The translations under genes and the position numbers were made by a program. Shown here piece by piece: positions 14,290 to 63,606 of a DNA stretch of 64,000 bases. Each line of letters begins with the position of its first letter. The stretch's first letter is position 1. The DNA comes from Nitrospinales bacterium (GTDB taxonomy: Bacteria; Nitrospinota_A; UBA7883; JACRGQ01): contig JAHFEJ010000003.1 in assembly GCA_023248535.1 (NCBI GenBank), positions 29,403 through 93,402 on the forward strand. The letters run 5' to 3'. A model generated the notes under the pieces. The model had not been told where the DNA came from and ran no database searches. It saw nothing but the letters and a program-made list of their open reading frames with translations.

Positions 14290-15378
14290 ACAACTCACCC
14301 CTCTCAATTATTTAATAATAACGGCTACAAGGTTAACGTAACGATTTCTGCGCCTTTTCCCATCAATGGGAAAAAGTGATACTAACATAGCCCGTAAGGG
14401 CGCGCAACGCTTAAAAAGTGAAATGCGGCTTTCGGGGCGGTTTTTTAAATTATGGAAAATAATTGATTAACTGCGCTAAAAAAAACGATGTTGGGATAAT
14501 CGATTCCGCATCGCTTAAAGGCTTTATCAATAGAAAAATATCTATTGATGCGTTGTCTGTTGGTTGGCGGGCTGGCAACAATTGAGGATATTGTTATAGT
14601 AGCGGCGACCTGTTCCCGTGGCAATATTGCTTGGTAGTTCAAGGCATTGTCTCTTGTTATGGCATTGCTGGTTAGTCTCGGTGAGGTGGTTGGGCGTAGA
14701 GCGGAGCTTCATGGGAAGGTTGAAAATACAATCGATCCGGCAAATGCTTAATAAGTCCTATTTGTCATAGGTTATTTTCTATGCGTTCCCGGCTGTTTTG
14801 TCCTGCCATATTGTTGGTGGTTTTTCAAAGCGAATTTAGGGCGAATGTATTTAATGCGCCAATGTAAGGCCTGGCGTCCCTAGACGGATAGATATTAATC
14901 AATTCGTATCACTTATCAAATGGTAAGCAAGTGTGCATCTAATTGTAATGACAATGTAAATTAGCCTGATACGATGTTGGTAATTTAAGGATCATAAGTG
15001 GGTCGACTCTAATTTTGGGCGGCTATGATTGATTTCTTTTAAACAAAGCGACTCCAAATTCCCTGATACCAACATTGCGAAGTAGCTAAAAATGGCTTGC
15101 GGAGGTTGTGAATGTATAGATATTAATGGATATGATGAGGGGCCTATGAGCCGACCCCGCCTTTTTTAAAGGGCGGTGTTGCCCGATGCCGTTTGAAGCG
15201 GAAAACAAGTCTGAAAAGGATTAGGCCGTGGCCGCTTTTTCTCTGGAAAAGATTTTCTCAAACTCGTTGAGGGCCTAGATCAGCAATGATGCCGATGCGC
15301 CCAACACTGGGCCGCCGCACGGCATTATGGTCACGCCGGAGGCTTCGGGGATTTCCTGGCGTGAGGGAGGGGAAAGTA

Positions 15379-53787: not shown

Positions 53788-53952
53788 CTATTCCAAGGAT
53801 CATGAACCGGGCTTGAAGCGAGGCTCCGGCGCGACCGAAGAGGGAGCGCAACCGGACAGGGACGTCCGGTTAGGAGGCGAGCCGGCCAGGACGAGCCGAA
53901 GCGTGACGCGCAGGCGAGTGATGGCGAGTCCGGCCTCCGGCACCACTATTCC
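53768..53952. repeat. Perfect 27-bp direct repeat of the tRNA-Leu 3' end (gagtccggcctccggcaccactattcc), at 53768-53794 and 53926-53952. att-like.
   Basis: Exact repeat read directly from the sequence. A 131-bp GC-rich spacer lies between the copies. Confidence 0.6.
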
Positions 53953-54081
53953 TCTCGGCACCATTAAAAGTGGTTCGATAGGCTCATTCGAAAAAATGGG
54001 TGGAGGCCACTTCCGCTACAGGTCGGGAAATAATTCGGCAGTTTCCCAATCTTGTTTCCCAAAAAAGCGGAAAGCAGTAAT

Positions 54082-54119
54082 AAAAAAAGCCCCGTGGCCG
54101 AAGCACACGGGGCTTTTTG
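54082..54119. terminator. Bidirectional intrinsic terminator downstream of the RRM gene.
   Basis: aaaaaaa-gccccgtg-gccgaagca-cacggggc-ttttt. Confidence 0.55.
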
Positions 54120-54136
54120 AAAAAGCTCGTTATGGG

Positions 54137-54502
54137 TTAGTAGCGTCCGCCGCCGCCACCGCCGTAACCACCACCACCGCCGCCACGGCCGCCGCGGCCA
54201 CCGCCGCCGCCGCCGAAGCCGCCACGGCCACCGCCACCGCCACCGGTGCGGGGTTCTTGCGGTTTTGCCTCGGCCACGCGCAAGGCGCGCCCTTCAACAC
54301 TGACACCGTTGAGTTGGGCTATCGCCGCTTCCGATTCTTCATCGGTAGCCATTTCAACGAAACCGAACCCTTTGCAGCGATTGGTTTCGCGGTCAATGAT
54401 TACCTTTGCCGATTCCACCGTTCCCGCTTGCTCGAACTGTTCGCGCAGCGATTCGTCGGTTGTGGAATAAGGCAGGTTGCCCACATACAGTTTCTTACCC
54501 AT
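54137..54502 (-). CDS. Glycine-rich RRM-type RNA-binding protein.
   Basis: RNP2 LYVGNL, RNP1 KGFGFVEM, and a C-terminal RGG/GGG tail. Confidence 0.85.
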   Translation of the reverse strand: MGKKLYVGNLPYSTTDESLREQFEQAGTVESAKVIIDRETNRCKGFGFVEMATDEESEAAIAQLNGVSVEGRALRVAEAKPQEPRTGGGGGGRGGFGGGGGGRGGRGGGGGGYGGGGGGRY

Positions 54503-54721
54503 TAGAACTCCAAAAAAACACGTAACATAATTGACCCCGCCGACCGGAACTTAAGCCCACGCTTAATGGATCCCTAAATGCGGAGCATGACTAACGCTTA
54601 AATGCTAACACAATCCCCAAAAGTTGGAAAATTATATTTTTTATTTCCAGAAGGGTTGTACCGCATAAGGGTAAGGCCCCTATTTTGCGATGCTTGGATA
54701 ATCCTCTATTATGTGGATTAT

Positions 54722-55492
54722 ATGCGAACAAAGCGGTGGCTTTATCTGGGCATTGGGGCCGCCGCCGGGTTTTTTGGCGGGCTGGTCGGGCTGGGCGGGG
54801 GTATCGTCATGGTGCCGCTGTTAACCGGCGCGGCGGGATTTTCACAACGCCGCGCCCATGGCACCAGTTTGGCTGCGCTGGTTTTCACCGGTATTGCGGG
54901 GGCCGCCACATATGCGTTGTCCGGCGCGGTTGATTTACTGGCGGCGGCGGCGTTGGCATCCACCGCCGTGCTTTCGGCGGGGGCCGGCGCGCGGAACGCG
55001 CATCACCTTCCGGCGGAAAAGCTCAAGCGGTATTTCGGGATTTTTCAACTGGGGATCGCCGCGTTGCTCTTCGCGAAACCGTGGCTTGTGCAAGGGGGCG
55101 CTCCCGCCGTGTGGACTAAAATTATTTTATTGCTGGCCACAGGGGCCTTCACAGGGTATCTCTCCGGGATGATGGGGGTTGGCGGCGGATCGATCATGGT
55201 TCCCGCCATGGTGCTGCTGGCCGGGATGGGGCAGCATGTGGCGCAGGGGAGCGCGCTATTGGCGATGGTTCCGGCGGGCATTGCCGGCGGGGCGGCGCAC
55301 CACCGGCTGGGGAACGTGGCGAAGGATGCGTTGTGGTGGCTGCTGCCGGGGATCGTGGCGGGCACGTTTGCCGGGGGGCGGGCGGCTGCGGCTATCGACG
55401 GCGATTGGCTGCGGATGCTGTTTGCCTGTGTGCTGGTTTATGTGGGGACGCGGTACGCCATGACCCCCGCGGCGGCGGAAAAACCGGCATAA
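54722..55492 (+). CDS. TauE/SafE-family (DUF81) sulfite/anion exporter.
   Basis: Two repeated G-rich TM motifs (GGLVGLGGGIVMVP / GMMGVGGGSIMVP). Confidence 0.85.
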   Translation: MRTKRWLYLGIGAAAGFFGGLVGLGGGIVMVPLLTGAAGFSQRRAHGTSLAALVFTGIAGAATYALSGAVDLLAAAALASTAVLSAGAGARNAHHLPAEKLKRYFGIFQLGIAALLFAKPWLVQGGAPAVWTKIILLLATGAFTGYLSGMMGVGGGSIMVPAMVLLAGMGQHVAQGSALLAMVPAGIAGGAAHHRLGNVAKDALWWLLPGIVAGTFAGGRAAAAIDGDWLRMLFACVLVYVGTRYAMTPAAAEKPA

Positions 55493-55589
55493 CCGGCTTT
55501 CATGCTTTTCGTTCTTTTCAGCCAGAGGCGCCCATCCCCTCCAAATCCTCCAGCCGCTCCAAAAAACCGGAAAATACCCCCGCGGAAGG

Positions 55590-55630
55590 ATAAATTGTTT
55601 GGGCATGAATTGTCACAAAATTGTGAGATT
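55590..55630 (+). promoter_or_regulatory. Candidate operator upstream of the WYL regulator gene: three AATTGT repeats at helical spacing, including the inverted repeat TCACAA-aa-TTGTGA.
   Basis: taaATTGTttgggcatgaATTGTcacaaaATTGTgagatt. Confidence 0.35.
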
Positions 55631-55764
55631 TCAAAAATCCTAAATCCTAGGTTTCTTCTACCAAGACCGAAAAGAGCCATCTCCATTCATTGGGCTTGAC
55701 GAACCAGCATAAAGCGGCATCTGCGATATGTGCGATACGCAGAAAAAGGACGTAAAATGATTTC

Positions 55765-56778
55765 ATGAAAAAGGATTCACGGCCACTTTTAACGCCGAGC
55801 CAGAAACAGATAGCAATCATATTTAGACTTCTTGCTTCGCCTGAAGGCATTGCAGTTTCGGCACTCATGCGGGACTACGAATTATCCTATAGGACATTCA
55901 GAAATTATTTGACTCATTTTCAAAACATACCGGATTTGGCCGATGACTTGGGTGACCCGCTCGTCATGGAAGATATCCGAGAAGGCGTTAAATATCTTCG
56001 GCTGAAACTTTCCATGATAGACGGCTCAAAAACTTCAGAACAACGTGCGCTGGCATTTTTATCTGGGATTTTATTGGAATTCCTTGAAGGAACCACTTTT
56101 TATGAGTCGTTACAGCAATTGGGTCACATCCATTCAAGCGATGGCATGAGGATTTTAGGGGTCAAATATCTTGACAGAAAAATATATTCAAAATTGCTAC
56201 ATCCCAAAATTTACGCCGGCAAAAGCGAGATTTTGAAGAAATCTATTTCAGTAGTCTTAAATCAGCGAAAAATCGACGTTAAATACAAAAGCCGAACGTC
56301 TAAATCGTTAGAGATGATAAAGCAATTTAAGCCGTACACTGTGCTGCATTACAGGTCAGGTCTTTATCTGGTGGGGGAATGCACACGCCAAGAAATGGGA
56401 AAGATTATTTACTTGGCAATCGAGCGTATCGATGAGTTAAAGGTTTTAAAGGAATCTTTCCATTACCCTGGCAATTATTCTCCCCAAAAGCTTGTATCAG
56501 ATTCGTTCGGGATAATGAAAGGGGGCAAAAGTTTCCATGTAGAGCTATTGTTCAAAAAGAACGTTGCGGAGCAAATCAAGGAGAGGCTCTGGCATAAAAC
56601 TCAAAAGATAGTCCAACTAAAAAACAAAGAGATTAAGCTCACCTTTACCGTATCTTCTCTTGACGAAGTGATTAATTGGGTGTTGAGCTACGGTGATAAC
56701 GTCAAAGTGCTGCAACCTGTCGAATTAAAGAATCTGGCGCTGAAGAGAGCACAGGAATTCCTCTTTCATAATTCTTAA
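55765..56778 (+). CDS. HTH-WYL-WCX transcriptional regulator (BrxR/CapW-like).
   Basis: N-terminal wHTH (IAVSALMRDYELSYRTFRNYL), central WYL-like motif LHYRSGLYLVGEC, and a C-terminal extension. Low GC. Confidence 0.65.
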   Translation: MKKDSRPLLTPSQKQIAIIFRLLASPEGIAVSALMRDYELSYRTFRNYLTHFQNIPDLADDLGDPLVMEDIREGVKYLRLKLSMIDGSKTSEQRALAFLSGILLEFLEGTTFYESLQQLGHIHSSDGMRILGVKYLDRKIYSKLLHPKIYAGKSEILKKSISVVLNQRKIDVKYKSRTSKSLEMIKQFKPYTVLHYRSGLYLVGECTRQEMGKIIYLAIERIDELKVLKESFHYPGNYSPQKLVSDSFGIMKGGKSFHVELLFKKNVAEQIKERLWHKTQKIVQLKNKEIKLTFTVSSLDEVINWVLSYGDNVKVLQPVELKNLALKRAQEFLFHNS

Positions 56779-56851
56779 ATATTTCTCTTTGTCCCTCAAT
56801 TAATTTGAAAAGTGAAAAATTCCTGCAAGTAAATATGGTTTATATAGACCA

Positions 56852-57721
56852 ATGGAATCTTACAATAAATATCTGCCTGATGTCAGTGCAGTCGTGCATG
56901 AAGCAATCAAGCATTTAGAAATGCTCTACCATCGAAAAGAATCAATCCACGGCATTCCAACGGGTTTTAAAAAGCTAGATAAAATGACGGCTGGATTTCA
57001 GGGTGGAGACCTCATCGTCTTCGCGGGCCTTCCCTCAACGGGGAAGAGTCTCATTTGCAGTAACATGGCGGAACATATGGCCGTATATGAAGCAAGGAGT
57101 GTTGCCTATTTTTCATTAGAAATGAGCAGCATTCAGGTGGTGTTACGTATGATTTCATCTATGGCCGCTATCGATATCCTGAAAATGAGAGCCGGTTTCC
57201 TGTCGGAAGACGATTGGTGCAAGATAAAAGCTGCGGGCAACAGTCTCACGGCTTCAAAAATCCATTTTGATGACGCACCAGCCCAGACCGTGTATGACAT
57301 TCGTTGGAAGGCAATTCTTAGGAAGGCTAAAGCCGGGTTGGACATACTATTTATTGATGACCTTGGACTTATTATGGAGCATCGCCAACCCGAAAATCGT
57401 ACACATGAAATTCGAGAAATCATCCGTTGCCTTAAAGATCTAGCACGCGAATTAAATATTCCAGTCGTTGTCACGTCAAAGCTCATGAAAAAAGGTAAAG
57501 GCCCCCTTGGCAAGCAGCCTCAAGAGGTCAATTTTGGTGAGTTCGGAGCCATTGAGCAGTTCGCTGATCTGGTGTGCCTTGTTAATCGCAAAATATATGA
57601 TTTCATCGAAGAAGCAGGGAGTTCATCAGCAGAGATCATTATTGTTAAGCATCGTAATGGCCCGATAGGCAAAATCCCTTTGGTTTTTTCAAATAGCTTT
57701 ATCAGATTTGATAACCCGTAA
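56852..57721 (+). CDS. Stand-alone DnaB-C-terminal-like RecA-fold ATPase (no N-terminal helicase or primase-binding domain).
   Basis: Walker A GLPSTGKS, SLEMS, Walker B ILFIDDLGLI and an arginine-finger region, as in the DnaB/KaiC/RadA ATPase core. Only 289 aa. Confidence 0.65.
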   Translation: MESYNKYLPDVSAVVHEAIKHLEMLYHRKESIHGIPTGFKKLDKMTAGFQGGDLIVFAGLPSTGKSLICSNMAEHMAVYEARSVAYFSLEMSSIQVVLRMISSMAAIDILKMRAGFLSEDDWCKIKAAGNSLTASKIHFDDAPAQTVYDIRWKAILRKAKAGLDILFIDDLGLIMEHRQPENRTHEIREIIRCLKDLARELNIPVVVTSKLMKKGKGPLGKQPQEVNFGEFGAIEQFADLVCLVNRKIYDFIEEAGSSSAEIIIVKHRNGPIGKIPLVFSNSFIRFDNP

Positions 57722-57786
57722 TATGCGATGCCTGATATTGAAAGAAAGATGTTGAGAAGGACGGTGAGAACCCTAATAGAAAAAGA

Positions 57787-58788
57787 GTGGATAATATGAA
57801 GGGGATTGCAAATAATCCAGTCATTTCCGGTGAAACACTCAATACGAGTCCATGCTTCAGCTTTTTACGCGACACTGGTTCACTTCATGTTGATTTTAGT
57901 CCGTGGATTAGCCTTTTAATGCGCATCGGCCCGGCGGAAACGGAGTTTCAGGTTGAATGCCAATATGGCAGTGAGGTGTGGTTGCCAGAGGCGCCATACT
58001 TTGAGCCTAAACTGCCATTCCTCGACTTCAACGATCCTGCAATAAATAGTTTCTTGGATCGAATTGAAAAGCGCGATGTAGAGGCGTCAAAATCGTTCCC
58101 AGAATACCAGCTTACTTTTCTTAGAATATTATCAAGTGCACCTGAAATGCATCAGTTGCTGGATTTTCGGCTTTTGGCCGTGCTCATTGCAGAGGCCGTA
58201 GCTTCCGGGGAGGTCGATATGCAAGAACTTCCAGCAATATTAAGGAATGATCGAAAAGAAATTCTTATCCGCGTTGCGGGATGTGAAGAAACCGGGCAGG
58301 AAGCATTGAACATCTTAAATAAACTACAACTATCCAATCTCGGTTTGGGTAATAGAATGTGGTGCAATGACGGCAATTTGGCGGTAATAAAGCGGGCGTT
58401 GAAATCAAAAACCAGCGTGATGTCGCTTAACAGGTATCCAATAATCACACAGTCATTGTTACGGTTATCGCTTGATGCGCCAGAGCTGGTGTCTTCGCAA
58501 TTGATGAGAACGGAGATTGCCAATAATCCTAATGACATCGAGGAAACCATTTTGACGATACGGGCGGTGTTCGATCAAGCAAAGCGCATGAAAAGGGCGA
58601 AAATACAAAAAAATCAGTTAACGGTTAAGTATGTTCTGGGATATGCCTATGGGGGGTACTTCGTGTGCAGAGAGCAGGGAGATGACGGAAACGCTGATTT
58701 GATGATTAGGCTAATGGAGAGCATAGGCCTTAATTGGCCAAAAGATAAAGATTTGTTAGGTGAAGATGGTTATCGTGGCTTGATTTAA
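57787..58788 (+). CDS. Hypothetical protein (island gene 3).
   Basis: Long ORF with island-type codon usage. No recognisable motif. Confidence 0.45.
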   Translation: MDNMKGIANNPVISGETLNTSPCFSFLRDTGSLHVDFSPWISLLMRIGPAETEFQVECQYGSEVWLPEAPYFEPKLPFLDFNDPAINSFLDRIEKRDVEASKSFPEYQLTFLRILSSAPEMHQLLDFRLLAVLIAEAVASGEVDMQELPAILRNDRKEILIRVAGCEETGQEALNILNKLQLSNLGLGNRMWCNDGNLAVIKRALKSKTSVMSLNRYPIITQSLLRLSLDAPELVSSQLMRTEIANNPNDIEETILTIRAVFDQAKRMKRAKIQKNQLTVKYVLGYAYGGYFVCREQGDDGNADLMIRLMESIGLNWPKDKDLLGEDGYRGLI

Positions 58789-58870
58789 AGAGTGCTGGGA
58801 TTCGGTATAGGTTTGCCCTCCTTACGAATAAGTTGTATAAATAATCAACAATTAATGTTGGGGAGATTTC

Positions 58871-59839
58871 ATGAAAAGAGGCTTGTCTCCAGAGTTTGCC
58901 AAGCAGTTGGAAGATAAGGGAGGTCTTCTAAACAAGTTCCTGGAAGTGGTCAAGAAGGATTCCACTCTTTGTCTTGAGATTCGGAACAATGCCATAAATG
59001 TTTACTATAGAGGTGGAAGCTTATTCAAAATTGAAGATAAAAAAAATGGATTTGAATATGCCATTTCATTCAATAAAAAATATTTCATGGGAAATTCTCA
59101 TAGTGATTTGCCCCAAATTATAAAAGCGGAAAATGACGTTGCATCGGAATGGATAAGAAAGGTGCCCGATCTGAAAAATGCAATGGATTTATTTTTTGGA
59201 AAGCATCCTAAAAATGAACGCGAATTTCAGCAGCTTATTTTAAGGGAAAACAACCAAGGAGCGTTGGGGCGAAGCACGGACTATTTTATTTGTGACATAG
59301 AATATGACAATCGGGAAGGTGCTCGATTTGACCTGATAGCGGTCAAGTGGCCAAGCACACCAAAGGACAGAAAAAATGCCAAGTACCTTAGATTGGCCTT
59401 TATTGAGAAAAAATATTTAGACGGCGCTTTGAGGAGTGCATCAACACCAGCCAAAATGGAAAGGCCAGGAATATCGAAACACTTACGCGACATGCGCGAA
59501 TACCTTAAGCCAAGCACCGTCGAGAATTTAAAAAAGGAAATGAAAGAAGTAGTCAACCTGAAGAAGAAATTAGGATTGATTAACATTCCCGATGAAATTG
59601 AAAGCTTCAGCAATGAAAAACCCGAATTTATTCTATTATTGGCAAACCACGATCCTGCCTCGAAAATATTAATTGAGGAACTCCGCAAAATTGATGAAAA
59701 GAAATTATCTGACATGCCGTTTGATTTAAAATTCGCTGTGAGCAATTTTATGGGTTACGGATTATTCAATGAGTGTATATACACTTTGAGCGAATTTAAG
59801 GCTCGATTTGCAAAGCAAATATATTCGGGGCCCGCCTAA
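58871..59839 (+). CDS. Hypothetical protein (island gene 4). Possible PD-(D/E)xK-like nuclease core.
   Basis: YFICDIEYD...RFDLIAVKW has the hydrophobic-strand-D ... hydrophobic-strand-xK spacing. This is weak evidence. Confidence 0.45.
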   Translation: MKRGLSPEFAKQLEDKGGLLNKFLEVVKKDSTLCLEIRNNAINVYYRGGSLFKIEDKKNGFEYAISFNKKYFMGNSHSDLPQIIKAENDVASEWIRKVPDLKNAMDLFFGKHPKNEREFQQLILRENNQGALGRSTDYFICDIEYDNREGARFDLIAVKWPSTPKDRKNAKYLRLAFIEKKYLDGALRSASTPAKMERPGISKHLRDMREYLKPSTVENLKKEMKEVVNLKKKLGLINIPDEIESFSNEKPEFILLLANHDPASKILIEELRKIDEKKLSDMPFDLKFAVSNFMGYGLFNECIYTLSEFKARFAKQIYSGPA

Positions 59840-59853
59840 GCGCCTTTAGGAAA

Positions 59854-61095
59854 ATGAATAACAATGTGAAGGTGGTAATTCACCGTGGGTCTCATGAAAT
59901 TGGGGGAACATGCATATCCATTACTACTCCCAAAACAAAACTGCTTCTTGATGCTGGAATGCCGCTTTCTGATGCCAGCGTCGGGATTGATATAAACTCC
60001 ATCAAGCCCGATGCGGTTTTTATAAGTCACCCGCACACCGATCATTTTGGAATGATGGAGACAGTTGATCCATCCATTCCAGTATATATGGGTCAGTTAA
60101 GCAAGAAGTTGATCGACTCGACAAGGATGTTCATTCGGAAAAGGCCCCTCATTAATAAAACTGTCATTTTTAAGCCGGGGGAAACAATTGTCGTTAATAA
60201 TGACATTCATGTCACCCCGCATCTTGTTGACCACTCCTCCGCCGAATCTTTTGCCTTTGAAATTGAGGCCGATGGAAAACGTCTTTTTTATAGCGGCGAC
60301 TTCAGGGGACATGGGAACAAAGGCCAGCTTTTTGAGCAGATGTTGAAAAATCCTCCTAAAAATATTGATGTGATGTTTATGGAAGGTACATGCATCCAGA
60401 GGAGTAACGACATCTTCCCAACTGAACATTCCGTGTTTAAAGTGATATTGGAAGTGCTGGAAGGACAGGCCAATATTTCCTTTTTGATTTCCTCCGCCCA
60501 AAACATAGATCGCTTAGTATGGGCACATCATGCGTGTCAGGATGCCGGTAAAATCATGGTGATTGATTTGTATATGGCATGGGTTTTGGAAGCCCTTTCT
60601 TCTGTTTCAGATAAAACACCCACCATGGCCAGCCCAAACGTTAAAGTCTTTATAGATTTCAACTTCTATAGCGCATTAAATAACAACCGCCTGGCCTATA
60701 ACGATTTCATACACCGGGCATTCCAGAAAAGGGTCAAAGAAGAGCAATTGCGGGCAAATCCTGCTGGATACCTATACTGTTCCAGAATTTCCGGATGCAG
60801 AAGGATGAAGGCCTTTGCCAAGCATGGAAAGATAAACATTATTTATTCCCAGTGGAGAGGATACCTTGAAAAGAAAGAGGATCGCAAAGTACAGGAGTTC
60901 AATGCTCTGGCAGAAAAGAACAATTATGTTTATGCGCATACGAGCGGACATGCGCCATTAAGCGATTTGAAAAAGCTGGCCCAAGCAATTAATCCCCAAA
61001 TGCTTGTCCCGATACATACTGAGCACGCAAGTGAATTTAAAAAGCATTTCAGCAATGTTTATGAGGCCACGGACAACTTTGGTTTTGAAGTGTAA
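59854..61095 (+). CDS. Metallo-beta-lactamase-fold beta-CASP-family nuclease (RNase J/CPSF73-like architecture).
   Basis: MBL motifs LLDAG, HPHTDH, H in VTPHLVDH, and SGDFRG. beta-CASP motif A-like MEGTC and motif C HTSGHA. Confidence 0.65.
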   Translation: MNNNVKVVIHRGSHEIGGTCISITTPKTKLLLDAGMPLSDASVGIDINSIKPDAVFISHPHTDHFGMMETVDPSIPVYMGQLSKKLIDSTRMFIRKRPLINKTVIFKPGETIVVNNDIHVTPHLVDHSSAESFAFEIEADGKRLFYSGDFRGHGNKGQLFEQMLKNPPKNIDVMFMEGTCIQRSNDIFPTEHSVFKVILEVLEGQANISFLISSAQNIDRLVWAHHACQDAGKIMVIDLYMAWVLEALSSVSDKTPTMASPNVKVFIDFNFYSALNNNRLAYNDFIHRAFQKRVKEEQLRANPAGYLYCSRISGCRRMKAFAKHGKINIIYSQWRGYLEKKEDRKVQEFNALAEKNNYVYAHTSGHAPLSDLKKLAQAINPQMLVPIHTEHASEFKKHFSNVYEATDNFGFEV

Positions 61096-61121
61096 GCTGG
61101 CCATTAAGATTCGGAGGGTAA

Positions 61122-61604
61122 ATGAAAAAAGACACGGCAAAAAAACTCAAGATGGTCATTGAGGGAATTGCCCAAAAAATTGAGCGCCATAAAAAACTGG
61201 TTGCTGGCGGGTGTCCAGCTGTGGGCATTTTCTGGTTTCTTAAAAAGAAGTCTGGACGGCTTGAGATGTATGCACCCGGAACTCCTGGGATTCCCTATAA
61301 ACTGGGCGAAGACGATGGGGAGTTTATTAACTACCCCGTTAGCCACTACCATGAATGGCGTGACATGAAAGTAATGTTCAAGAAGAATGTGAAGAACCGT
61401 ATTTATCCTGAACCATTTGATGCCTACATAGACAAAGAATATGATGACGCTCCACGCGGGAGGATTGTTTATTCAAAGTTGAATAAGAAATTCTACGTTC
61501 ATGTGACAAAATCTCTTATGAAGCCACGAATCAAAACGCTTATTTGCAAGGAATTCAGACTACCGGCAAACACAGTCTTCATGAATGATGAGCATTATGG
61601 CTAG
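61122..61604 (+). CDS. Hypothetical small protein (island gene 6).
   Basis: ORF with island codon usage, 27 bp after the beta-CASP gene. Confidence 0.45.
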   Translation: MKKDTAKKLKMVIEGIAQKIERHKKLVAGGCPAVGIFWFLKKKSGRLEMYAPGTPGIPYKLGEDDGEFINYPVSHYHEWRDMKVMFKKNVKNRIYPEPFDAYIDKEYDDAPRGRIVYSKLNKKFYVHVTKSLMKPRIKTLICKEFRLPANTVFMNDEHYG

Positions 61605-61794
61605 GGTGTAGGGCCGATCAATTTCCCGCCGTTTTCGTGGCTTTTGAGGTCGTGATTATCATTTTTCAAGATCAGCTAAGGCAAGAAGTCGGTATAAGTT
61701 ACCTAAATATAATTGTTTATGCTTCACGCGGAATGCCTCTCCCGCGGAAAGTGCGGTATACTCAAAGTGCACTACCGAAAGGAGCCGATCGCAA

Positions 61795-63606
61795 ATGCAA
61801 AACATACCGATTGCCGCGAAAAAAAATCCGTTCACCCTCATCGGCGACCAGAAAATCATCATCGACTACGCCGCCATTTACTGCCGCACGCCGCAGGAAT
61901 TGCTGAAGAGCACGCTCTTCCTCGAAATACTTACCCGGTTCATCCGCCGCATCGAGGAAAAGCGGACCCCCGGCTACCTCTTTCTGCGCGAACGCCGCCC
62001 GGATCTGAAACCGGAGGCGATCCCCGATTTTGTGCTGCGGCTGCTCCGCCTGCTGGTGGGACACAGCGCGGAAGAGATCATCGCGCTGAACCCCGATTAC
62101 GGGAGCGTGCTGAACGTGGGAAACGACCGCGAATGGATATACGAGCTGCGGCGCGACCTGTACAACTACTGGCGGCGCATCGAGCGGTACATCTTCCTTG
62201 AGATGCCGCACGGCTCCGGCCAGAAGTCGATCGACATCTATCACGACCAGTTCATGAGCGGCTGCGAGGACCTGCGCGCCCTCATCCTGCGCACGAACCG
62301 CCTCATCGGCGAGCACCTCTCCGGCAAAGACCCCAAGGTCTACCGCCAGCTCCCCGCCGGGGCGAACATGGCGATGCTGCTGGAGCGGATCGACTGGAAA
62401 TGCCCGTCGTTCCTGCAGGCGTTCCGGGACGTGGAGTTCATCCGCATCACGCTCATCGAGCCGCCGCTGATCCTCTACTCGAAATCCAACACGCGCAAGG
62501 GGACGTTTCTGGAGATACCCGGCCCCCACGGCCCAATCACGGTGGACCCTTCCGAGTGGTTCTGTTTTCCCGCCAAGGTGGGCGAGCTGACCGCGTTTAT
62601 CTTTTTCCATCTCGACTACATCGCGCAGGCGCTCTCGTTGTCGAACCTGTTCGAGCTGGCGGAATACGACGACATCAACGGCAAGACGCCCGACCTGGCG
62701 GTGCTGTTCGGCGTGCCGGGGGAGGGGATGAAGGAGTACACCGAATTTTTCGAGGACCGCCAAAGCGGCATCATCACCGGCATGGTGAAGCGCAGCGCCG
62801 ATGTCGGCTACTTCGGCTACTTCAAGAAGATGACGCTGACGCTGCACAACGTGGCGATGCTGAACCGGGGCCGCCTGCCGCTGCACGGCGCGATGGTGCA
62901 CATCAAGCTGAAGGCGGGGGGTTACGCCAACATCGTCCTCGTGGGGGATTCCGGCGCGGGCAAGAGCGAAACGCTGGAGGCGTTGCGCACCATCGCCGAC
63001 GAATATTTCAGCGACATCAAGGTGATCTTCGACGATATGGGGAGCCTCGCCATCAAGGAGGACGGCCGCGTACACGGCTACGGCACCGAGATCGGCGCAT
63101 TCGTCCGGCTGGACGACCTCCACCCGAAATACGCCTACGAGGAAGTGGACCGCTCCATCTTCATCAACCCCGACCGGAAGAACGCCCGGCTCATCATGCC
63201 GATAACCGCCTACCACCACGTGGTGATGGGCTACCCGGTGGATATGCTGTTCTACGCCAACAACTACGAGCACCTGGGCGACGACAAACCGGCGGTGGAG
63301 TTTTTCAGCCGCGCGGATGAGGCGCTGCAGGTGTTCCGCGACGGCTCGCGCCTGGCCAAGGGAACCACCGACGAGAAGGGGCTGGTCCGCACCTACTTCG
63401 CCAATCCGTTCGGCGCGCAGCAGCGCGAGGCGAAGCACGAGAAGGTGGCGGCGGCGGTCTTTGCGCGGATGTTCGAGACCGGCGTGAAGGTCGGGCAGGT
63501 GCGCACGCGTCTCGGCATTCCCGGCTTCGAGCAGGAGGGGCCGAAAGCGGTGGCGGAAAAACTTTACGAGGTACTGAAGGAACTGGCCAAACGGCCCGGA
63601 CGCTGA
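61795..63606 (+). CDS. Large protein with a C-terminal HPr-kinase-like P-loop domain (hypothetical kinase).
   Basis: LVGDSGAGKSETLEAL matches the HprK/PEPCK-type Walker A (GDSGxGKSE). The N-terminal 350 aa are unassigned. Confidence 0.5.
   Translation: MQNIPIAAKKNPFTLIGDQKIIIDYAAIYCRTPQELLKSTLFLEILTRFIRRIEEKRTPGYLFLRERRPDLKPEAIPDFVLRLLRLLVGHSAEEIIALNPDYGSVLNVGNDREWIYELRRDLYNYWRRIERYIFLEMPHGSGQKSIDIYHDQFMSGCEDLRALILRTNRLIGEHLSGKDPKVYRQLPAGANMAMLLERIDWKCPSFLQAFRDVEFIRITLIEPPLILYSKSNTRKGTFLEIPGPHGPITVDPSEWFCFPAKVGELTAFIFFHLDYIAQALSLSNLFELAEYDDINGKTPDLAVLFGVPGEGMKEYTEFFEDRQSGIITGMVKRSADVGYFGYFKKMTLTLHNVAMLNRGRLPLHGAMVHIKLKAGGYANIVLVGDSGAGKSETLEALRTIADEYFSDIKVIFDDMGSLAIKEDGRVHGYGTEIGAFVRLDDLHPKYAYEEVDRSIFINPDRKNARLIMPITAYHHVVMGYPVDMLFYANNYEHLGDDKPAVEFFSRADEALQVFRDGSRLAKGTTDEKGLVRTYFANPFGAQQREAKHEKVAAAVFARMFETGVKVGQVRTRLGIPGFEQEGPKAVAEKLYEVLKELAKRPGR

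Follow-up and report, generated by a model that had tools for sequence, protein, structure and literature searches.

Cas14 is an RNA-guided and mostly archaeal nuclease. In type VII CRISPR systems, this enzyme of the beta-CASP family of metallo-beta-lactamase (MBL)-fold proteins has been recruited as an immune nuclease (PMC10910872, PMC13069675). In Hachiman, AVAST, and Lamassu, the MBL effectors resemble ComEC and fall outside the beta-CASP family, and in the HamM and trypsin-MBL modules (Hachiman, AVAST, Lamassu, DRT) an MBL-fold defense nuclease is found beside a controlling partner, as a proenzyme that is activated by a fused trypsin-like protease (PMC12799240). WYL-WCX repressors of immune operons sense single-stranded DNA, which releases them (PMC11662680), and rapidly evolving, displaced restriction endonuclease (REase) domains have been described for ARG-centered conflict systems (PMC9503650). 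Here we describe a gene encoding a predicted beta-CASP MBL-fold nuclease, referred to below as the MBL protein, in a 64,000-nucleotide stretch of the genome of a Nitrospinales bacterium (assembly GCA_023248535.1, contig JAHFEJ010000003.1, positions 29,403 to 93,402; hereafter, the window). Comparison of its homologues indicates that the protein forms the unvarying half of a conserved module of two predicted nucleases, which mobile islands and plasmids carry. An initial annotation of the window had proposed a nucleic acid-degrading effector role for it and had remarked that beta-CASP nucleases are rarely described as defense effectors; this is a fair statement, and the clear precedent that we found is Cas14 (PMC10910872).

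The locus differs from each of these systems. The Cas14 profile NF045584 matches the MBL protein weakly (4e-9, 35 bits, against a cutoff of 800), the protein has 413 residues against 612 model positions, and it lacks the Cas10-like C-terminal adaptor domain. No island gene matched the Cas5 or Cas7 models, no CRISPR repeat array was found nearby, and the only matches in the island that carry a CAS label (the WYL and Cas3c models) both fall on the WYL gene. An identity as Cas14 or as part of a type VII CRISPR system was rejected on the basis of the score and of the missing cas genes and arrays. Like the trypsin-MBL modules, the locus places an MBL-fold nuclease beside another protein, but that partner is of the PD-(D/E)xK type, and there is no protease. 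As in operons regulated by CapW or BrxR, a WYL-WCX regulator heads the operon in the window, and BrxR or WYL-WCX genes adjoin the pair elsewhere; the cargo here is a beta-CASP enzyme with an REase-like protein, in contrast to described systems such as CBASS or BREX. The partner recalls the effectors of REase-ARP and Shedu type in that a PD-(D/E)xK-type protein is hypervariable and displaced between related loci. However, it matches neither the REase-ARP model nor the Shedu models of PADLOC, and its companion is a constant beta-CASP enzyme. A match to REase-ARP (1e-18) was obtained for an alternative neighbor family, N8. Shedu and the other listed systems were rejected for lack of PADLOC matches, and an Apyc1-like anti-Pycsar enzyme was rejected because the "faint" precomputed Pfam Anti-Pycsar_Apyc1 matches on family members had no counterpart in our local Pfam scan. 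We found no published description of the pair in the full-text literature on beta-CASP, MBL, RNase J, WYL, BrxR, REase, and defense.

The MBL protein is a predicted beta-CASP nuclease

The gene and the motifs of its product are as follows.

59854 to 61095, + strand: predicted beta-CASP MBL-fold nuclease, RNase J-like; open reading frame (ORF) of 413 codons with an ATG start
59941 to 59958, + strand: MBL motif 1, D33 in LLLDAG
60028 to 60045, + strand: MBL motif 2, H59-P-H61-T-D63-H64
60226 to 60237, + strand: MBL motif 3, H127 in VDHS
60292 to 60306, + strand: MBL motif 4, D149 in SGDFR
60379 to 60390, + strand: beta-CASP motif A, E177 in MEGT
60937 to 60954, + strand: beta-CASP motif B, HTSGHA, residues 362 to 367 (H362/H366)
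61009 to 61026, + strand: beta-CASP motif C, H388 in PIHTEH

The complete MBL motif set (D, HxHxDH, H, D) reported in the initial annotation is present. When 25 homologues that share ~50% identity with the query are aligned, the listed residues of motifs 1 to 4, A, B, and C never vary, and because they are kept at this distance, the motif set is judged to be under selection and a chance match is excluded. The annotation had assigned MEGT to motif A, as we do; its assignment of HTSGHA to motif C had to be revised, since HMMER alignments to Helicobacter pylori RNase J (7pcr) and to PDB entry 2az4 place this stretch on HxSGH, the element that constitutes motif B; H388 represents motif C. Pfam analysis returned Lactamase_B_2 (1.7e-14), Lactamase_B_3 (4e-8), and Lactamase_B (9e-8), all above the gathering scores. 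Of the two beta-CASP profiles that had been proposed as a check, RMMBL matched at 8.9e-7, above its gathering score, and Beta-Casp (PF10996) gave no match at E<=0.1.

The AlphaFold model of the protein (predicted local distance difference test score [pLDDT], 85.7) superposes over its full length, inserted domain included, on 2az4 (E 9e-24; template modeling score [TM], 0.74). The next structural matches were many RNase J structures (TM 0.70 to 0.75), followed by IntS11 and aCPSF1 (archaeal CPSF1). The inserted alpha/beta domain that characterizes beta-CASP enzymes is present in the model, which aligns over ~460 to 480 columns, including gaps, with RNase J, IntS11, and aCPSF1. The predicted structure thus confirms the RNase J/CPSF73-type beta-CASP architecture that had been proposed, and the motifs together with the inserted domain place the protein in the MBL superfamily and the beta-CASP family. 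No SNM1 or Artemis structure was among the top 50 structural matches.

Although the whole chain has the MBL and beta-CASP fold of RNase J and keeps motifs 1 to 4, A, B (HxSGH), and C, the protein falls far below the cutoffs of the RNase J subfamily models (TIGR00649, 3e-17 and 62.1 bits against 400; NF047419, 49.5 bits against 820). It covers the RNase J profile only to approximately position 250 of 546, plus the stretch of motifs B and C. At 413 residues, compared with ~550 for RNase J, it ends 22 residues past the PIHTEH stretch and has no counterpart of the C-terminal dimerization domain. It also differs from RNase J in being island borne and paired with a PD-(D/E)xK-type gene. The JGI annotation labels several homologues "ribonuclease J," and several such labels are misleading. 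The closest solved structure is that of EF2904 from Enterococcus faecalis (2az4), which is the best match in both sequence (2.8e-13) and structure. At 429 residues, EF2904 is near the MBL protein in length and likewise has no RNase J C-terminal domain. The two proteins are only ~19 to 24% identical, and the genes for close relatives of EF2904 belong to an ABC-transporter operon, where they adjoin a gene for a 2',3'-cyclic-nucleotide phosphodiesterase and have no nuclease partner. EF2904 was therefore rejected as a functional guide, as a member of a different family.

The family of the MBL protein is large, comprising 4991 clusters (at 90% identity) at E<=0.001, and its distribution is patchy over many phyla. 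The members of the top 120 clusters are all ~410 to 440 residues long, and the closest nonidentical homologue is only ~50% identical. The family is rare in phages: we obtained 6 weak GenBank matches, mostly EF2904-like, and 7 loci among 2.9 million IMG/VR contigs, and a phage origin was rejected on these counts.

The constant MBL protein is paired with a replaceable PD-(D/E)xK-type partner

The gene directly upstream encodes the partner in this locus.

58871 to 59839, + strand: unk322, PD-(D/E)xK-type partner of 322 residues (family F3, superfamily F1/F3), upstream of the MBL gene
59213 to 59233, + strand: candidate catalytic residues E116/E118 of unk322
59324 to 59344, + strand: candidate catalytic residue D154 of unk322
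59399 to 59416, + strand: candidate catalytic residues E179 and K181 of unk322

The two genes are separated by 14 nucleotides (59840 to 59853) and not by 15 bp, as previously stated. Eighty genome loci around MBL genes were fetched, the neighboring ORFs were clustered, and the counts were redone with hidden Markov models (HMMs). A partner of 220 to 410 residues belonging to family F1, F3, F5, F6, F10, or F51 was located within 4 kb of the MBL gene in 71 of 81 loci. It was directly adjacent on the same strand in 54 of 82, with a median gap of 12 bp. The reverse search, with homologues of unk322 in metagenomes, found the MBL gene as the next gene in 23 of the 36 loci with enough flank. The pairing persists for MBL proteins only 32 to 36% identical to the query, on plasmids of Rhizobium and Ochrobactrum and on a few viral contigs.

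The MBL gene and its partner do not vary together. Among pairs of MBL proteins at least 80% identical, the partners belonged to the same superfamily in only 28 of 60 cases, and the median identity of the partners was "not alignable"; MBL proteins 80 to 93% identical carry partners that cannot be aligned. Two comparisons locate the boundaries of the exchange. The homologous stretch of loci L030 and L063 (90% DNA identity) begins ~130 bp before the MBL start and ends with the MBL stop codon, past which nothing is shared. In L035 and L058, the MBL gene and the gene past the partner are common to both and the partner between them is swapped (F5 versus F1), homology resuming shortly after the partner gene, close to where the following gene begins. 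Because near-identical MBL proteins carry unalignable partners, the comparison indicates that the partner is a swapped cassette and the MBL protein the constant member. An unvarying core whose variable module is displaced between loci is a typical feature of conflict systems, such as those centered on ARG (PMC9503650).

The partner families number at least six and share only an E...D...ExK (PD-(D/E)xK) signature. The 36 homologues of unk322 all keep residues E116/E118, D154, E179, and K181. The structural model of unk322 (pLDDT 86) has the topology alpha-beta-beta-beta-alpha-beta, the predicted elements being a helix at residues 115 to 128, strands at 138 to 146, 152 to 159, and 173 to 182, and a helix at 201 to 211. 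Weak matches to PDDEXK_9 were seen in 21 of the 36 homologues (best E, 0.001). The possible PD-(D/E)xK core noted earlier in the upstream gene is thus supported, the model carrying the E...D...(D/E)xK signature on the expected core. Family F3, to which unk322 belongs, is homologous to the commonest partner family, F1 (hhalign probability, 98.7%). Families F5, F6, F10, and F51 are 10 to 16% identical to each other, and the only invariant columns of their joint alignment are a D, an E, and a K, with one further near-invariant E; their weak Pfam matches are all to PD-(D/E)xK families (MmcB, NucS_C, YhcG_C, Cas4, and HSDR_N). No partner family had a Pfam or PADLOC match above threshold, the one weak PADLOC match, to PDC-S18 (E 0.008), coming from a representative of the families other than that of unk322, and tblastn against the plasmid collection found no match for unk322.

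In three independent contexts (L087, 8910 to 9836; L096 to L100; and L106), the F3 gene is followed by a gene for a 310-residue DHH-type phosphoesterase instead of the MBL gene. The motifs DxD, D, and DHH are visible in this protein, and Pfam DHH matches it at E 0.0027. DHH proteins form the RecJ/NrnA superfamily, and the substitution suggests, by analogy, a 5'-end exonuclease or phosphodiesterase role for the MBL position in the module.

The pair lies in an operon on an inserted island

The pair belongs to a set of six genes of low guanine-plus-cytosine (GC) content.

55581 to 61745: inserted island of ~6.2 kb, GC content 0.418 against 0.575 in the rest of the window, with one six-gene operon on the + strand
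55579 to 55589, + strand: left copy of the junction direct repeat, CCCGCGGAAGG, 11 bp, imperfect
61741 to 61751, + strand: right copy of the junction repeat, CCCGCGGAAAG, matching the left copy at 10 of 11 positions
55765 to 56778, + strand: WYL-WCX transcription regulator of CapW/BrxR type, 337 residues (Pfam WCX 1.1e-14, WYL 3.7e-6; PADLOC WYL 6.4e-25)
56852 to 57721, + strand: DnaB_C-only (RecA-like) ATPase, 289 residues (Pfam DnaB_C 2.7e-70), with intact Walker A (GLPSTGKS) and Walker B (LFIDD) motifs
57787 to 58788, + strand: unk333, an island-specific orphan of 333 residues between the ATPase and the nuclease pair
61122 to 61604, + strand: unk160, small F2-family domain, repeatedly found with the MBL pair

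The six genes (55765 to 61604) are all on the + strand with short gaps and have GC contents of 38 to 44%. The horizontally acquired island proposed in the initial annotation was confirmed by this GC content and by a related genome (L175), whose LeuA falls in the same 90%-identity cluster and whose gene order is shared with the window. There, TauE is followed directly by a 603-residue gene, and blastn matches the window at 54082 to 55580 and then at 61746 to 62488. Because the same site is empty in L175, where the junction reads CCCTTTGGAAAG, the island is a recent insertion of ~6.2 kb. Neither the ORF list nor the Pfam scan contained an integrase, relaxase, or replication initiator among the genes of the island, and Rfam detected no RNA genes in it.

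The Pfam matches of the regulator to WYL and WCX are both above the cutoffs and lie in the order WYL, then WCX. The ATPase is not a full-length replicative DnaB, since it scores 261 bits against 385 with TIGR00665 and covers profile positions 148 to 432 only. Within the operon, PADLOC identified the WYL gene alone, apart from a weak mad8 match for the ATPase.

Several of these genes recur with the pair elsewhere. In 15 of 86 loci, a WYL gene stands no more than five genes from the MBL gene, of which it is often the immediate upstream neighbor, and the regulator at the pair in Geomobilimonas is of BrxR type. DnaB_C-only ATPases occur in 8 of 86 loci and, in L164, next to partner F3 alone. The F2 domain of unk160 is present in 22 of 81 loci (HMM count) and lies directly upstream of the MBL gene on Rhizobium and Ochrobactrum plasmids. 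F2 had to be recounted by HMM because ORF clustering had merged it with PHP/DnaE-like genes through a single PHP-F2 fusion.

By their Pfam labels, the wider neighborhoods contain a Bub operon, AbiEii, PIN, KAP NTPase, SNIPE, NERD, TerB, HEPN-SNF2, pPIWI-associated nuclease, E1/E2/JAB genes, restriction-modification (RM) systems (one MmeI-type system and one Eco57I-type system on a plasmid), a reverse transcriptase gene adjoining SIR2, integrases, and a relaxase. When 145 neighbors within 8 kb were sampled at random, they included WYL, SIR2-pAgo partner, SoFic, AriA, GmrSD, AbiLi, and several PDC/HEC candidate families, along with SRAP, Y-family polymerase, integrases, and ordinary metabolic genes. 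A small HAD-superfamily phosphatase is encoded directly upstream of the pair in L101 to L103, L108, and L110, and another is found in L031 (3533 to 3868). The phosphatase upstream of the pair has weak similarity to Pfam HAD_PNKP (E 4e-6, just below the gathering score). In two loci, the pair lies within ~10 kb of ARG-centered genes, with other genes between; these are ADP-ribosylglycohydrolase and ARPP-1 in L172 and ADP-ribosylglycohydrolase and a PTP-type phosphatase in L004. The ARG-centered system type was reportedly described by Iyer et al. in 2022.

A possible defense module and its alternatives

Taken together, the island appears to hold a nuclease-based, WYL-regulated module made of undescribed families, whose function we infer. 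We give an even chance to the notion that the module is a WYL-controlled endonuclease with a 5'-to-3' exonuclease that defends against phages or plasmids. The WYL-WCX regulator would repress the operon and be released upon the appearance of single-stranded or damaged DNA, as for its CapW and BrxR relatives. The variable partner, unk322, would then recognize invader nucleic acid and nick or cut it. PD-(D/E)xK enzymes leave 5'-phosphate ends. In enzymes of RNase J type, the HxSGH element forms the pocket for a 5'-monophosphate, and degradation runs from 5' to 3'. This element is kept in the MBL protein, and we propose that the protein would load on the cut 5'-phosphate ends and degrade the strand in the 5'-to-3' direction. 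Its substrate could be either DNA or RNA. The ATPase, of hexameric-helicase type, probably feeds single strands in the island of the window, and unk160 and unk333 may be accessory parts. Because the partner is the variable member of the pair, it is uncertain which of the two proteins is the effector and which the specificity component.

A more specific version is advanced only tentatively, as a proposal that we would expect to fail somewhat more readily than to hold. It is that the pair represents an undescribed, widespread innate immune family in which a cassette-swapped PD-(D/E)xK sensor-nickase licenses an unvarying RNase J-like exonuclease that depends on 5'-phosphate, a DHH exonuclease can serve as the alternative, and, in this locus, WYL (single-stranded DNA-sensing) control and a DnaB_C-type motor are added. 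The nickase would tag the invader for destruction by the exonuclease. If this version is true, it would be the first non-CRISPR immune system based on a beta-CASP enzyme. Any defensive role would bring a new enzyme class, beta-CASP and RNase J-like, to non-CRISPR bacterial immunity and would make the module a clear case of a constant enzyme with a replaceable specificity cassette. The size of the family (~5000 clusters) would make it useful for studying how immune specificity diversifies via gene displacement, and the partner families form a pool of uncharacterized PD-(D/E)xK enzymes whose recognition properties probably differ.

Several observations weigh against a defense module. Its weakest part is self-discrimination. 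No methyltransferase or other self/non-self component is conserved with the pair, and because there is no conserved self-protection gene, discrimination would need tight repression, recognition of foreign features (as in type IV restriction), or abortive infection. PADLOC-DB v2.0.0 has no match for the MBL protein, unk322, unk333, or unk160, which means that the module is unlisted and says nothing about a defensive role. Because the Foldseek search with the unk322 model returned no significant match in the PDB or BFVD, the PD-(D/E)xK assignment of the partner rests on motifs, topology, and weak profile matches. Given the context of EF2904, small-molecule or oligonucleotide phosphodiesters are also conceivable substrates of the MBL fold. 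The neighborhood census, which had no matched control, gives qualitative support to a variable island rich in defense and mobile-element genes. The same neighborhoods include genes of SOS and DNA-damage type, namely, LexA-like S24 peptidase, Y-family polymerase, SRAP, PHP/DnaE-like genes, and HAD/PNKP-like phosphatases.

These last genes bear directly on the principal alternative, that mobile elements carry the module for the DNA-damage response or for repair. In that case, the WYL regulator would react to DNA damage by inducing a structure-specific PD-(D/E)xK endonuclease and an SNM1/Artemis-like beta-CASP 5'-exonuclease, which would process damaged ends, cross-links, or stalled forks with the help of the DnaB_C ATPase. 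WYL regulators also control DNA-damage regulons. WYL-WCX regulators respond to DNA damage as well as to single-stranded DNA (PMC11662680), and SNM1 and Artemis, two nucleases of DNA repair, belong to the beta-CASP enzymes (PMC10910872). LexA-like S24 peptidases occur in 5 loci, with a Y-family polymerase beside LexA in L173; SRAP and IMS appear in the census, PHP/DnaE-like genes stand beside F2 in ~7 loci, and DUF2779/Cas4-like exonucleases and RecQ/topoisomerase genes join the HAD/PNKP-like phosphatases among the neighbors. However, the same mobile elements often carry cassettes for SOS-type mutagenesis, which makes co-location weak evidence. The swap of the partner for unalignable families between 90%-identical copies is not expected of repair enzymes, nor does repair sit well with the patchy, island- and plasmid-borne distribution and the empty site in a close relative. 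The fold, moreover, is closest to RNase J, with SNM1 and Artemis missing from the top structural matches, and we consider a repair role unlikely. Should it prove correct, a WYL-controlled endonuclease with a beta-CASP exonuclease would be a new bacterial parallel to end processing of SNM1/Artemis type.

We attach still less weight to a selfish function, which seems improbable. The pair might be a toxin and its antidote, one nuclease being the toxin and the other protein controlling it, or an anti-defense or entry-exclusion module that serves the element and not the host. The tight coupling of two genes with one variable member would fit, as would the island's own regulator, the plasmid occurrence next to relaxase and RM genes, and the occurrence in integrative elements that also encode integrases, RadC, Fic, and a DnaG-type zinc ribbon. 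Yet both proteins have complete catalytic sites, which a typical antidote does not; the pair showed no consistent association with genes for conjugation or replication; the island in the window carries no integrase, relaxase, or replication initiator; and the family is rare in viral contigs. It is very improbable that the MBL protein acts on small nucleotides, as a phosphodiesterase of cyclic or linear oligonucleotides that shuts down or tunes a nucleotide-activated PD-(D/E)xK effector in the manner of a ring nuclease or Apyc1. The precomputed Apyc1 matches noted above and the phosphodiesterase gene beside EF2904 relatives point this way, and the DHH family, whose members replace the MBL protein in some loci, includes cyclic-dinucleotide phosphodiesterases. 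However, the pair has no conserved association with a cyclase or other signal-making enzyme, the searches with unk322 revealed no CARF- or SAVED-like sensor, the local Pfam scan gave no Apyc1 match, and the full beta-CASP insertion with motifs B and C is typical of polynucleotide-processing enzymes. Finally, a housekeeping RNase J paralogue in RNA turnover, which the best named profile and structure matches and the JGI labels would favor, is scarcely credible and was rejected. The protein scores 62 bits against 400 and has no C-terminal domain, its gene has a GC content of 0.43 in a genome of ~0.58, the syntenic site is empty in the relative, and the gene is paired with a variable nuclease-like gene. 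The initial annotation had named two outcomes that would speak against its reading, namely, a motif C region that does not align with the beta-CASP family and a grouping with housekeeping RNase J at a conserved locus. Neither was observed, as the region aligns with RNase J and 2az4, the score is below the cutoff, and the site is empty in L175.

Other features of the island and its surroundings

Two candidate expression signals flank the operon, both of them consensus matches only, and such promoter- and terminator-like sites are no more frequent in the region than in shuffled sequence.

55610 to 55638, + strand: promoter-like site, TTGTCA and AAAAAT with a spacer of 17 nucleotides
61635 to 61655, + strand: terminator-like hairpin with a T-run, 3' of unk160, the last gene of the operon

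A near-palindrome, TCACAAAATTGTGA (55613 to 55626), overlaps the -35 element of the promoter-like site upstream of the WYL gene and is a plausible candidate operator for the WYL regulator.

Family F2, that of unk160, comprises 208 representative clusters by exhaustive HMMER search, mostly of 120 to 180 residues; a word-indexed homologue search with unk160 had returned the query alone. The conserved motifs are VGIFW, GEP-YG, an H...W pair, YDxxPRGRVxY, and D-HY. A few fusions join the domain to an ADP-ribosylglycohydrolase or an FtsZ_C-like region, and the PHP-F2 fusion was found in one fetched locus. Examples of the domain are found at L089 (5528 to 6004), L090 (5570 to 5965), P0261, P0273, and L073 (13459 to 14733). 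For unk333, no match was obtained in Pfam, NCBIfam, PHROGs, PADLOC, the plasmids, or the fetched loci, save for the identical contig L005.

The 603-residue protein that flanks the island (61795 to 63606) is a P-loop protein kept in L175; it is below all Pfam, NCBIfam, and PADLOC thresholds. A different insertion of ~6.6 kb is present in L175 (12636 to 19287), downstream of accD and tRNA-Leu, and contains TetR, DUF2141, two MacB/FtsX genes, and an ABC ATPase. The equivalent in the window is ~270 bp at 53813 to 54082, a second variable spot a few kilobases from the island. Farther away, at 14380 to 15280, a low-GC segment of ~0.9 kb with no ORF of at least 110 residues and no Rfam match lies between rpsU and a HIT-family gene.

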